Position numbers and translations under genes: made by a program. The notes under the pieces are model-generated. The model saw only the letters and a program-made list of their open reading frames with translations, did not search any database and was not told the DNA's origin. From Candidatus Hydrogenedentota bacterium (lineage in GTDB: Bacteria > Hydrogenedentota > Hydrogenedentia > Hydrogenedentales > SLHB01): a stretch of DNA of 64,000 nt. Every line of letters starts with the position of its first letter. Within the stretch, counting starts at the first letter, position 1. The stretch covers positions 1,120,001 to 1,184,000 of the forward strand of contig CAXXTH010000017.1 of assembly GCA_963668025.2 (NCBI GenBank). The letters run 5' to 3'. Shown here piece after piece: positions 25,064 through 49,971 of the stretch.

Positions 25064-25251
25064 GTAACACTTTAGCCAAGCGGTGAAGAATGACCGGCGA
25101 GGGCGCCGGTCCCACACATGACTTGCTAGAAAAAGTGTGGGACCGACGCCCTCGTCGGTCATCAGATGGAAAATGATGTATCAATACCAGTGCAAGGCAA
25201 TAAACAAGGCTGCCAAATACCAGATGCCGCTTCAGTCGGCTAAAGTGTTAC
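25064..25251. mobile_element. 188-bp MITE-like element with an internal REP-like doublet
   Basis: perfect 14-bp TIR GTAACACTTTAGCC / GGCTAAAGTGTTAC; related copies at 39435-39696, 53675-53961, partial near 50078-50131. Confidence 0.8.
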
Positions 25252-47291: not shown

Positions 47292-47326
47292 AAAAGCGGG
47301 CAGCCCTTCCGGGCGGCCCGCTTTTT
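47292..47326. terminator. bidirectional intrinsic terminator
   Basis: AAAAGCGGGC...GCCCGCTTTTT between convergent genes. Confidence 0.8.
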
Positions 47327-47357
47327 ATTCCTGTTCCGCTTTCCTCGATAGGTGTAA

Positions 47358-47777
47358 TCAGTTCGTTCGGGACAATTCCATATCTCCGTAGAAGAGTTTC
47401 CCGCCGCGCACCGTGACGATATAGGACATATCTCCTGTTTTCACCGTGATTTGCCCCGCGTCAAAGGTCCATTCGCCAGATTCCGAGCCGTTGGCCGTCA
47501 ATTTGCCGTCTTGCCCGAAAGCCAGCGTGAGCGGGCCCGCGCTCCAAGCGGTTCCTGGCAGCGATTCCGCTGTCAGGGCAGCTTCGGGCGCTGGATTCGC
47601 CGCAGGTGCGGAAGCGGCGCTAACTGGTTTTACCGTTTGTGCGGGCTCTGCCGGCTTGCCGGTTTCGCCGCCACAACCAGTTGCCAGAATGACAACCGCT
47701 AATGCCATGGCTCCATGCAAGAAGATCCTCCAAGGGGCCATTTGATTGCTGTTACGCAGCCATTTCCCGCTTTGCAT
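47358..47777 (-). CDS. hypothetical lipoprotein
   Basis: ATGC lipobox, Pro/Ala linker, beta-rich C-terminal domain; AGGAG RBS. Confidence 0.75.
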   Translation of the reverse strand: MQSGKWLRNSNQMAPWRIFLHGAMALAVVILATGCGGETGKPAEPAQTVKPVSAASAPAANPAPEAALTAESLPGTAWSAGPLTLAFGQDGKLTANGSESGEWTFDAGQITVKTGDMSYIVTVRGGKLFYGDMELSRTN

Positions 47778-47795
47778 CTGTCGGACGACTCCTTT

Positions 47796-48230
47796 TTACT
47801 TTTCAGCAGCCTTGCCCAAGGCCAGCATGATGGACGATTGTGCATCATCTTTTATGACCTTGATGCTTAATGTACGCGAATCCTTGCTATAGGTCATCGT
47901 GTACATCAGGCCGCCTTGATCCGCAGACATCTCTTCCGTCCACTGATTAGCTTTCGCCTGCTCTTTGAAGCTCTTGACTACCTGGCCATACGTATCGGGC
48001 GTTACCGCGGATAGGGTATAGACGCCCTCTGCCGCACCCTTGGCGCACATCTCGATCTTCATGTCTTTGTAGAGCGGCACATCTTTTGGAAAGTCTTCAG
48101 GAATCTGTGCATCTTCACCGATCAGCACTGGCGGGGCATCGGATTTCTTCGACGCCGCCGACTCTGCGCCATCGGCCACCCCGGCTTCGGCGATAGAAGC
48201 CTGAGCCGGGGTGACCAATTGATGGTTTAG
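47796..48230 (-). CDS. globular domain (IPEDFPKDVPLY type); probable -1 frameshift extension of the upstream lipoprotein
   Basis: open -1 frame from the slippery site; only a TTG start (48218) without clear RBS and no signal peptide. Confidence 0.7.
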   Translation of the reverse strand, partial: LNHQLVTPAQASIAEAGVADGAESAASKKSDAPPVLIGEDAQIPEDFPKDVPLYKDMKIEMCAKGAAEGVYTLSAVTPDTYGQVVKSFKEQAKANQWTEEMSADQGGLMYTMTYSKDSRTLSIKVIKDDAQSSIMLALGKAAEK

Positions 48231-48236
48231 TTTCCC
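48169..48236 (-). other. candidate programmed -1 frameshift signal
   Basis: G GGA AAC TAA followed by a long GC-rich stem-loop. Confidence 0.65.
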
Positions 48237-48529
48237 GCTGGGGCCGGGGCTGGCGCTGGCGCTGGCGCCGGAGCTGGTGCCGGAGCCGCAGGGGCTGCCG
48301 GAGCTGGTGCCGGAGCCGCAGGCGGAGTTATCGGAGCAGGCATAGCCGGCGGCGCAGGCGGCTTCGGCATGTCAGGCTTTGCCGTGTCAGGCTTCGGCAT
48401 CGGAGCTGGCTTCTCGCCCACGCCTGGTTTTTGCACAGGTTCCGACGGTTTCTGTCCGCATCCTGCTACTACGAGCGTCACCGCCAGCAGTATGCAGCAC
48501 GCCAATCCAAGAGCTGCCATTTTCTTCAT
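48227..48529 (-). CDS. short Pro/Ala-rich lipoprotein (100 aa)
   Basis: MKKMAALG...VAGC lipobox, GAGGAG RBS, ends in PAPAPAGN*. Confidence 0.8.
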   Translation of the reverse strand: MKKMAALGLACCILLAVTLVVAGCGQKPSEPVQKPGVGEKPAPMPKPDTAKPDMPKPPAPPAMPAPITPPAAPAPAPAAPAAPAPAPAPAPAPAPAPAGN

Positions 48530-48717
48530 AGATGCACTCTCTCCTCTCGCTGGCAACACGAAGGCTGCCTGGTTGAGTGTTTGTTTACGTGCAAAGGGCA
48601 GACGAACTTTCGTTTGCCACAACAATTCTTCGCACGCTCCTTTAGACTACACCTGATGCACATTCACGTCAACATGCACCGGTACATTAATGTAATCCGC
48701 CGAATCTGTCAAAAGTT

Positions 48718-49971
48718 TCACCGATTCTTTTCCGCTTGTTCCATATCCCGAAACACGGCGGCGGCCAGAAAAACCAACAGCAGCGCCCCGGCGGCAGGGA
48801 CTGCCCAGAAGATGCGGTAATCAATGGCCCCGTCCGCATAAGTAAACCATTGGGCGAGTTTTCCAGCAAGAAGGCTGCCTCCGAGCACGCCTCCGCCCGA
48901 GAATATCATGGCGAAAATCTGCTGGGCCCCCGAGCGCTCGCCTGGCCGGCAATAGGTGTCCAGGCAAATGAAAGCCGCTGCGAAATACAACGCATAGCAC
49001 AATCCATGTGACGCCAAAGCCATCAATACTAATGTATCCGGTTTGCCGATAGCTAACGCGCCATAGCGGAACACCTCCGCCAGCAACCCGGCTATCAATA
49101 CCCGCTTAAACCCCCACCGCGCCAAAATGCGGCCCAGGCAAATCATGACGCCGACTTCGGTGACTTGGCCCAGGCTCATGGCGGGCATGATATAGGCGTC
49201 CGCATAGCCTCGGGCGTGCAGAAAGGGCGCCGCGCCAAAATAAAAAAAACGGTCCACCACGGCCGCCAAAAAGGTCAGTATTCCCAATCGCGCCACGGAA
49301 CCATTAAAGTATAGCTTTAGGGCGTCCCATGGAGACGCCTTTAAAGCGCCTGATTCTTGGCGGCGGCTTTGAGGAAGGGCGAGAGCGCCCGCGGCGAATA
49401 CGAACGATACGATAGCGGACAGCCATAAGGTATCTTGCAGGCGGCCCGAATTTAACTCGCCCGAAGGCGTTCGCAGCCAGCCGAAGCCGAATATGACTGC
49501 CACGACGATGCAGCTTGCCGTGCCCCATAACCGGATGATCCCAAAATCACGCCCATTTTCTTTCAAGTGGTGAAAGACAATGGCGTTGGTCAAACCGAAT
49601 GTAGGCGCGAAGCAGAGGCTGTATATTAAGTACCATATTATAAATGGACCATATTTGGTTTGCTGGGCCAGCATAAGCATGGCCAATCCGCCCAATGCAT
49701 TGCAGAGGGACAGCAGGCGCTCGTCGCTGATCCGATGATTCGCAAGACGCATGATGAAAAGCGGCGCGATGATTGCCGCCACCGCAGGCATGGCCAGCAC
49801 TTTTCCTATTTGGAATGCCTCGAAACCAAGCGTATCTTTCAAATAGAGGCTCAATATGGGCACGGTCGCACTTGGGATGAGATGTTCCAGGAACATCATG
49901 CTGTTGAGCCGCCAGCGAATGCTTCGTTTCACGGATTGATCCAGTCTGTTGTGTGAATGCCGATAACGCAA
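48718..49971 (-). CDS. MFS nucleoside:H+ symporter-like (NupG/YegT family)
   Basis: MMFLE, PTFGLTNAI, FGIIRLWGT, MSLGQVTEV, HGLCY. Confidence 0.82.
   Translation of the reverse strand: MRYRHSHNRLDQSVKRSIRWRLNSMMFLEHLIPSATVPILSLYLKDTLGFEAFQIGKVLAMPAVAAIIAPLFIMRLANHRISDERLLSLCNALGGLAMLMLAQQTKYGPFIIWYLIYSLCFAPTFGLTNAIVFHHLKENGRDFGIIRLWGTASCIVVAVIFGFGWLRTPSGELNSGRLQDTLWLSAIVSFVFAAGALALPQSRRQESGALKASPWDALKLYFNGSVARLGILTFLAAVVDRFFYFGAAPFLHARGYADAYIMPAMSLGQVTEVGVMICLGRILARWGFKRVLIAGLLAEVFRYGALAIGKPDTLVLMALASHGLCYALYFAAAFICLDTYCRPGERSGAQQIFAMIFSGGGVLGGSLLAGKLAQWFTYADGAIDYRIFWAVPAAGALLLVFLAAAVFRDMEQAEKNR

Follow-up and report, generated by a model that had tools for sequence, protein, structure and literature searches.

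A one-base offset beside a slippery heptamer and a stable hairpin in a lipoprotein gene of Candidatus Hydrogenedentota: candidate -1 frameshifting or a recently broken gene

Introduction

When a gene is split by one base and the break bears the marks of a frameshift signal, do ribosomes cross it, or is the gene simply broken? This question is raised by a lipoprotein gene of Candidatus Hydrogenedentota bacterium (GTDB lineage Bacteria; Hydrogenedentota; Hydrogenedentia; Hydrogenedentales; SLHB01), which lies in a stretch of 64,000 nucleotides (nt) that we analysed as a whole and call the window (GenBank assembly GCA_963668025.2, contig CAXXTH010000017.1, positions 1,120,001 to 1,184,000). All coordinates are positions in this 64-kb window, and all features of the locus are on its minus strand. 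The locus is made of two open reading frames (ORFs). ORF-A encodes the N-terminal part of a lipoprotein and ends in a stop codon placed directly after a candidate slippery heptamer, and ORF-B runs on in the -1 frame into a folded domain. An earlier, sequence-only reading of the window had proposed that the two are joined by frameshift decoding.

Few -1 frameshifts have been verified in bacterial genes outside mobile elements, and dnaX and copA are the usual examples. The present locus is broken by gene callers into unrelated small ORFs; the database record P0003 is ORF-B of the window, called as a protein of 127 amino acids (aa) from a GTG. By comparison with their homologues, ORF-A and ORF-B together make up a single lipoprotein gene whose halves stand one base out of frame. 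We tentatively favour the explanation that -1 ribosomal slippage at this site would supply the functional full-length lipoprotein. In that case the slippage most likely makes up for a 1-nt deletion that arose recently in this lineage, and is not an ancient device for making two products.

Results

One gene in the relatives, two frames in the window

The product of the -1 frame (P0001, from ORF-B) has homologues in 43 of the 60 relatives searched, the best of them 42% identical, and in 32 of 53 other genomes of the family (expect value, E <= 1e-10), none of which is of the same genus. The records of the relatives that carry the gene are metagenome-assembled genomes of Candidatus Hydrogenedentota or Hydrogenedentales. 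Scanning genome contigs returned six loci (best 45% identical), and scanning metagenome contigs returned a single one, L022, which begins at the heptamer. In 22 of the 23 distinct homologous loci, one ORF holds the signal, the lipobox, the linker and the domain; the 23rd is masked by N. The encoded proteins have an N-terminus of the form M...G-C-G, a linker of variable length and the domain motif I/L/V-P-x-D-F-P-K-D-V-P-L-Y. The gene is present in a single copy in the window genome, where its reading frame is disrupted relative to the orthologues, as that of a pseudogene would be.

In searches of protein records, P0001 had four matches at near lengths, namely the window's own call and three relatives, and at longer lengths it had none among 796 candidates, that is, no longer fused forms. 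The search with the product of ORF-A (P0002) found nothing among 8000 scored candidates, a weak result for a protein of low complexity. From residue 6 to its end, P0001 aligns without gaps to P0005, a protein of a closer relative, and in a MAFFT alignment the match reaches upstream to the residues that directly follow the heptamer. BLASTP of ORF-A against P0005 gave no significant alignment (composition adjustment), the linkers being alike in composition only. A further relative, P0004 (140 aa, 64% identical), starts at the position equivalent to a TTG of ORF-B. It was considered as a second split gene and set aside: its 942-nt contig would end about where L022 does, so that the edge of the contig probably accounts for the start, and P0004 is uninformative.

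The offset is real DNA

The one-base offset is not an accident of one assembly. We searched public sequencing runs with 47358-48700 and compared the contigs of four of them (X1, X3, X4 and X5). X1, a near-identical run that is possibly the source of the assembly, gave a 9834-nt contig over the whole stretch with 0 differences. X3, another sample of the same study, gave an 814-nt contig at depth 52 that covers 47879-48689 with 0 differences and 0 gaps, so that one contig runs from the signal peptide through the linker, heptamer, stop and hairpin into the domain, most of which it includes. Assemblies from other samples, contig 20 of X4 and the Joint Genome Institute (JGI) contig L022, end at 48237. 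The likely cause is a repeat shared across organisms: the 33-nt Pro/Ala-coding stretch at 48236-48268 has an exact copy in an 8762-nt X1 contig of another organism or locus. A mis-join through this repeat was considered and rejected, because the stretch is single-copy in the window genome and X3 spans the junction without a competing exact copy.

Might the true genome nevertheless have one more base, and an intact gene? The region is GC-rich and repetitive, the metagenome assemblies stop where they do, and there is no record of the library type for X1 or X3, all of which would suit such an artefact. Yet independent k-mer re-assemblies of two samples are identical, one of them at the depth just given; the homopolymer runs involved have just 3-4 bases; the ORF map of the window (54 long ORFs) has no second split gene; and the 33-nt repeat behind the assembly breaks is found nowhere else in this genome. 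The sequencing or assembly indel that the sequence-only reading had reckoned with is very unlikely after the X3 result, and we give an artefact next to no weight.

A complete candidate frameshift cassette

The individual parts of a frameshift site are present, and in their description the sequence-only reading has held up well. ORF-A encodes, as it had said, a 100-aa lipoprotein with a lipobox and a Pro/Ala linker. Its N-terminus, as read from the translation, has M-K-K-M, a hydrophobic core and V-V-A-G-C-G. This is a signal peptide ending in a lipobox with the invariant Cys, as in substrates of Lgt/LspA, and after Cys24 there is a Pro/Ala-rich tail without a folded domain. The last codons are GCG GGA AAC TAA, in which the heptamer G GGA AAC had rightly been seen to abut the stop, in the X XXY YYZ register of canonical -1 frameshift sites. 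Translation confirmed that the -1 frame is open from there for 144 codons, into a domain without a signal peptide. The -1 translation from 48236 begins G K L N H Q L V T P A Q, and the same frame is likewise open for 45 codons 5' of the heptamer.

The structure that the earlier reading had drawn downstream of the stop was returned by folding. Its lower stem of 5 bp (CCAUC/GAUGG) is separated by a 4-nt bulge from an upper stem of 13 bp, one of them a G-U pair, and a 3-bp stem forms the apex. Folded alone, 48229-48165 has a free energy of -40.6 kcal/mol (z -6.7; 0 of 200 shuffles as stable), and the upper stem is retained in a 91-nt context (z -4.6). By an empirical rule for bacterial stimulators, the hairpin spans 17-140 nt and begins 4-10 nt past the motif (PMC4066793), and the window hairpin begins 4 nt past it. 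Its loop at 48193-48187 (UCGCCGA) is complementary, counting G-U pairs, to a 7-nt segment further downstream (UCGGCGG); a pseudoknot formed by this pairing is speculative, since the observation is of complementarity only.

Other identities of the hairpin and other ways past the stop were tried. No U-tract follows the hairpin, no terminator-like site was called on the minus strand, and an Rfam search of 47300-48800 gave 0 matches at E <= 1, which led us to reject a terminator or a known RNA family. A repeat element or inserted palindrome was rejected too, as a blastn search of the whole genome with the 62-nt hairpin returned, besides the hairpin itself, no match longer than 15 nt. Stop-codon readthrough was rejected because frame 0 past the TAA never enters the frame of the domain. 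Transcriptional slippage and phase variation are unlikely with runs of just 3-4 bases.

The cassette of heptamer, stop, hairpin and open -1 frame is complete and statistically exceptional in the 6.1-Mb genome. We scanned this genome, strand by strand, for hairpins in which 13 or more consecutive pairs enclose a loop of 3-25 nt (n=1635). The hairpin of the window ranks 47th in stability; those above it are mostly outside long open frames, and several come from repeated palindrome families. Of the 256 hairpins at or below -30 kcal/mol, only 50 are within an open frame that has 150 codons or more on the same strand. An XXXYYYZ heptamer stands 0-14 nt upstream in 112 of the 1012 hairpins at or below -20 kcal/mol, and four of these 112 have at least 60 open codons both in frame 0 upstream and in frame -1 downstream. 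At just one of the four, the present site, does frame 0 end at once (2 codons) and leave 146 codons in -1. The hairpin also distinguishes the window from its distant homologues. In the 22 in-frame loci, the 120-nt segment that precedes the domain folds no better than shuffled sequence (z -1.8 to +1.7, from 100 mononucleotide shuffles per locus; L020, where the motif was not found, is not among them), and the same test gives z -5.9 for the window and z -6.7 for L022.

The scan brought up two side observations. The sole other site of this kind in the genome is on contig C18 (minus strand, about 80764-80770), where A AAT TTC is followed 9 nt later by a hairpin of -31.8 kcal/mol; frame 0 ends there after 12 codons and the -1 frame is open for 70. 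It is much weaker and may be due to chance. Separately, an intergenic palindrome at 25101-25151 of the window (C17:1145101-1145151; -37.1 kcal/mol) begins with GGGCGTCGGTCCCACAC. Palindromes with this start have at least five copies, on contigs C10, C17 and C24, and further repeated families start with GGACGCGGAGTTTCGCGGAG, CCGCGAAAGCGGGGATCC and GTAGCATGGCCGTCCCGGCCATG. These repeated palindromes look like repetitive extragenic palindromic (REP) elements.

The second half and its possible starts

ORF-B stands out in the ORF map of the window in that 51 open codons precede its first start. The earlier reading had found a TTG without a ribosome-binding site to be its sole start, and this was confirmed: the TTG at 48218 is the sole start codon before the domain in the ORF list, it stands at the foot of the hairpin, and it lacks a Shine-Dalgarno of the AGGAG type, whereas ORF-A and the next gene each have one.

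The domain itself carries the label PF27226 (AF_1845) in the precomputed annotation of P0003, P0005 and P0006, and the nearest Atlas cluster (score 0.90) has 79% of its members so labelled. A copy of Pfam-A without the PF27226 model gave 0 matches to ORF-B, and NCBIfam gave nothing significant. In the AlphaFold2 model of P0001, residues 41-146 have block-mean predicted local distance difference test (pLDDT) values of 83-98, and the predicted order is beta-beta-alpha-beta4 (two strands, helix, four strands). Its best matches in the PDB are DcrB, PA1624, PsbP and LpqN, and they are weak (E >= 1.3e-3, template modelling (TM) score 0.4-0.5), so that no function can be transferred to the domain. 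Some of these nearest folds are of periplasmic, lumenal or lipoprotein proteins. With envelope-type proteins among the nearest folds, and neither a Shine-Dalgarno nor a signal peptide in ORF-B, the domain has no alternative route of export.

These data bear on the possibility that the locus makes two separate products. ORF-A would then encode a small lipoprotein, and ORF-B a cytoplasmic domain started by termination-reinitiation at the TTG, or at the GTG of P0003. The TTG is just 8 nt past the TAA, the 127-aa database call does begin at the GTG, and ORF-B is under purifying selection (see below). But neither start has a Shine-Dalgarno and both fall within the -40 kcal/mol hairpin. Moreover, the -1 frame sequence that precedes the starts is homologous to the linker of P0005, the domain stands behind a lipoprotein signal in every readable homologue, and the nearest folds include the envelope-type proteins just named. 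We consider independent products improbable.

Where the frame changes and how strains vary

Strain variation helps to place the offset. Of the six variants up to 48287, three are synonymous when read in frame 0 and one when read in the -1 frame, which favours frame 0. As P0005 aligns in the -1 frame, the frame must change between about 48286 and 48231, an interval that includes the heptamer. One A added to the A-run would join the two frames (Ala-Gly-Lys-Leu...) and so do in the DNA what a -1 slip does in translation.

Within ORF-B, 11 of the 17 variant sites seen in X4, X5 and L022 (97% identical) are synonymous, where chance would give 23-33% (P = 2e-4 to 8e-3), and the six replacements are conservative; five further differences were left out of this count. 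Judged by these variants, ORF-B is under purifying selection among strains. The -1 frame is thus open (144 codons), continuous with the upstream ORF (P0005 alignment) and selected (11/17 synonymous), as in canonical frameshift genes, and decay of the pseudogene type is not seen: both halves are otherwise intact and the variants of ORF-B are mostly synonymous.

The signal region is also invariant. The stretch with heptamer, stop and hairpin has 0 differences over the 161 nt of an X4 contig (48077-48237) and over 181 nt of L022, whose neighbouring sequence is about 2.5% different (P about 0.01-0.02 each, the two not being independent). The heptamer is identical in L022, a 97% identical metagenome contig, and in the RNA-library contig of X4. 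No X4 or X5 contig crosses 48238-48255 and L022 begins at 48237. The junction is therefore unseen in the 97%-identical strains, and the selection on ORF-B is not tied to carriers of the offset. Contigs of the X4 RNA library cover both halves; DNA carry-over being possible, we do not count them as evidence of transcription.

Decoding at the heptamer

The genome has 48 tRNAs according to aragorn, among them tRNA-Gly(UCC), a single tRNA-Asn(GUU), and both tRNA-Lys(CUU) and tRNA-Lys(UUU). On slipping back one base, tRNA-Gly(UCC) is able to re-pair from GGA to GGG, but AAA is a non-cognate codon for tRNA-Asn(GUU) once it has moved there from AAC. Heptamers that work efficiently in E. coli are of the V_VVA_AAR type or similar; in this species high-level -1 shift requires cognate re-pairing in the A site, and AAC to AAA is poorly tolerated (PMC4066793). 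The same paper has a proven natural case that ends in AAC, the A_AAA_AAC cluster of insertion sequences (IS) (PMC4066793). G_GGA_AAC is among the shiftiest heptamers on mammalian ribosomes and is the g-t shift site of the haloarchaeal virus HCTV-1 (PMC5009743). The special shiftiness of AAG is described as confined to bacteria with a single tRNA-Lys (PMC5009743); since this genome has two, the E. coli rankings of heptamers may not transfer to it.

Slippage may also matter where no signal exists. In E. coli, -1 slippage suppressed single-base deletions at an aggregate level of 1-10% (PMC10861913), and with 45 codons in which a slip would restore the frame, some full-length product is to be expected here even without a programmed signal. 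A native frameshift site for comparison is lacking, as PF01527 (IS3 OrfA-type) has no match in the genome, and no published description of the present case was found in the literature searched.

The locus and its neighbour

The coordinates of the features are given in Table 1. The second small lipoprotein gene starts 18 nt 3' of ORF-B and is probably in the same operon; its product has no family in Pfam or NCBIfam searches. The contigs of X4 and X5 have one additional T behind 47792, in the spacer between the stop of ORF-B and this next gene. This intergenic strain indel tells us that indels among these strains do arise close to the split gene.

Table 1. Features of the split lipoprotein locus, as positions in the window
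Feature	Position	Strand	Remarks
Shine-Dalgarno-like AGGAG	48541-48545	minus	11 nt upstream of the ORF-A ATG, read from sequence
ORF-A, frame 0	48227-48529	minus	ATG 48529, 100 codons + TAA; N-terminal lipoprotein part
Signal peptide and lipobox V-V-A-G-C	48458-48529	minus	Cys24 at 48460-48458
Pro/Ala-rich linker	48230-48457	minus	ORF-A residues 25-100, frame 0
Candidate slippery heptamer G GGA AAC	48230-48236	minus	X XXY YYZ register, 0-frame codons GGA and AAC
0-frame stop TAA	48227-48229	minus	directly 3' of the heptamer
Hairpin, candidate frameshift stimulator	48169-48225	minus	57 nt, starts 4 nt after the heptamer
TTG	48216-48218	minus	sole ORF-B start codon before the domain in the ORF list; foot of the hairpin
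Possible pseudoknot partner	48155-48161	minus	7 nt UCGGCGG, starts 8 nt 3' of the hairpin
ORF-B, -1 frame	47796-48236	minus	heptamer to TAA 47798-47796; 146 codons, 144 after the slip
Folded C-terminal domain	47799-48128	minus	about residues 37-146 of P0001; motif I-P-E-D-F-P-K-D-V-P-L-Y
Downstream gene, second small lipoprotein	47358-47777	minus	139 aa; lipobox L-A-T-G-C; own AAGGAG before ATG 47777

Discussion

Our results suggest the following scenario. Most ribosomes would stop at the TAA and release the linker-only lipoprotein of 100 aa, which is probably useless. A fraction would slip back one base and make a lipoprotein of 244 aa, in which Asn100 of ORF-A is joined to Leu3 of the -1 translation. 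The slip might take place in tandem on G GGA AAC, with tRNA-Gly(UCC) moving from GGA to GGG and tRNA-Asn from AAC to AAA, or it might be a slip of tRNA-Asn in the P site while the slow TAA occupies the A site. In either case the very stable hairpin just downstream would aid it. As for its origin, the arrangement may have arisen when 1 nt was deleted in this lineage, the deletion being tolerated as slippage restored enough product. The occurrence of slippage, its efficiency and the origin of the arrangement are what we infer here.

Several observations weigh against this explanation. Some concern the relatives. P0005 (208 aa, N-terminally incomplete, 62% identical) is the only closer relative with a visible junction, and it has a Pro/Ala-rich linker of 67 residues in frame with the domain, with A-P-G aligned to the residues that the heptamer encodes. 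Each of the 22 distant homologues that can be read is in frame too and lacks the fold. The offset is therefore not conserved beyond the species, and the contigs that keep the signal are all about 97% identical to the window. Both arms of the hairpin encode residues (V/A-T-P/S-A and E-A-G-V/A-A) that P0001, P0004 and the in-frame P0005 have in common, whereas the loop varies, as does the linker elsewhere. This hints at a hairpin in the in-frame relative as well, and the hairpin may thus predate the offset and serve another purpose. The purifying selection on ORF-B may stem from strains with an intact gene. Other observations concern the signal itself. The heptamer is outside the class with cognate A-site re-pairing that is efficient in bacteria, a spacer of 4 nt is the shortest that the 4-10 nt range allows, and no Shine-Dalgarno-like stimulator is seen upstream of the heptamer. 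Finally, the trans-frame product is a prediction from sequence, the 100-aa linker-only product has no evident use, and the prior for recoding in a cellular gene is low.

The rival that gains most from these points is a plain inactivating mutation, which we regard as a serious possibility. A recent 1-nt deletion (or 2-nt insertion) would have hit the GC-rich linker, with the short C, G or A runs of 48231-48255 as candidate spots. The heptamer and hairpin would be there by coincidence, any full-length product would be background leak, and the gene would be an incipient pseudogene. Frameshifted genes are in general far commoner than recoded ones, and a deletion in a short homopolymer run could by itself yield a site that looks slippery. 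P0005 and the 22 distant homologues show no trace of a conserved offset, the frames of other strains over 48238-48255 are unseen, and the class of the heptamer is inefficient in E. coli (PMC4066793). Also, the arm residues conserved in the in-frame P0005 make an older hairpin possible, which leaves a smaller coincidence to explain. This coincidence is nevertheless large: an in-register heptamer, an abutting stop and a hairpin of about the top 50 of the genome, 4 nt on, come together once in 6.1 Mb. A dying gene would also have to account for the purifying selection on ORF-B among strains and for a heptamer, stop and hairpin that are identical in three separate sources with diverged neighbouring sequence. 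The RNA-library contigs over both halves count weakly on the same side, as such libraries may contain DNA. Sequence alone cannot yet decide between frameshift decoding and recent breakage.

A stronger version of the frameshift reading is that the site is genuinely programmed: a lineage-specific -1 frameshift, selected to set the ratio of full-length to linker-only lipoprotein. It would use G GGA AAC with an abutting stop and a 21-bp hairpin, a type of signal regarded as inefficient in bacteria, and would be a recoding site seen shortly after a compensated 1-nt deletion had given rise to it. We consider this unlikely, although not negligible. The sequence-only reading had gone further and assumed two useful products at a set ratio; nothing shows such a ratio, and the short form has no evident function. 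It had also held that orthologues fused in frame, or lacking heptamer and stem, would tell against it, and this is what we found in P0005, which is in frame, and in the 22 readable distant homologues, which are single ORFs without the hairpin. The two ORFs are halves of one gene and the cassette is complete, as it had supposed, but a conserved, ancient programmed signal is not shown, and a lineage-specific frameshift is as likely as a broken gene.

If slippage does occur here, it would extend the list of cases to a phylum about which little is known, to a lipoprotein that is secreted and to a heptamer that is rated poor in E. coli. It would also show how a recoding site can be born, by a deletion that falls beside a stable hairpin and is then tolerated. 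If there is no slippage, the locus is an ordinary young pseudogene, and a caution that frameshift cassettes that look complete can arise by chance.

Comparison with known systems

Among cellular genes, E. coli dnaX is the natural reference. Its stimulators are an upstream Shine-Dalgarno and a downstream hairpin, and its signal is conserved among relatives, which is not shown for the window site. The dnaX slip gives the shorter product, whereas a slip here would give the longer one. Its heptamer is A AAA AAG, read by a cognate tRNA-Lys and preceded by the Shine-Dalgarno; here the heptamer ends in AAC, has no upstream Shine-Dalgarno and is abutted by the stop. The two sites are alike in lying in a chromosomal, non-mobile gene, in having a heptamer with a stable hairpin a few nt downstream, and in the two products expected from one mRNA (PMC5009743).

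The IS frameshifts on A_AAA_AAC come from mobile elements and have no established stimulator, unlike the window site, which is in a cellular gene and has a very strong hairpin; the A_AAA_AAC_1 cluster we take to be insAB' of IS1. They share with it a bacterial -1 slip on a heptamer ending in AAC that extends the upstream ORF (PMC4066793).

The g-t frameshifts of tail-assembly chaperones use the same or nearly the same heptamer and make their long form by a -1 shift near the end of a short ORF. In phage lambda the heptamer is G GGA AAG. These cases are viral, and both of their products have known roles at a fixed ratio, whereas the window locus has no phage context; the case with G GGA AAC is archaeal.

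G GGA AAC followed by a pseudoknot is the signal type of beet western yellows virus (BWYV) and simian retrovirus 1 (SRV-1), to which the sequence-only reading had likened the site. The likeness is exact as to the heptamer. It does not extend to efficiency: eukaryotic ribosomes and compact pseudoknots are at work there, a bacterial ribosome and a long hairpin would be here, so that eukaryotic efficiencies need not apply, and AAC to AAA is poor in E. coli.

As a protein, the full-length product would resemble the PF27226 (AF_1845) lipoproteins, given its domain label and its lipoprotein homologues. As a decoding event, it may be likened to corrective frameshifting, in which a 1-nt deletion is rescued by a -1 slip (PMC10861913). 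Corrective or compensatory frameshifting has been defined as a class (PMC5009743), and what sets the window site apart from the ordinary leaky mutants is that it carries a full stimulatory cassette.

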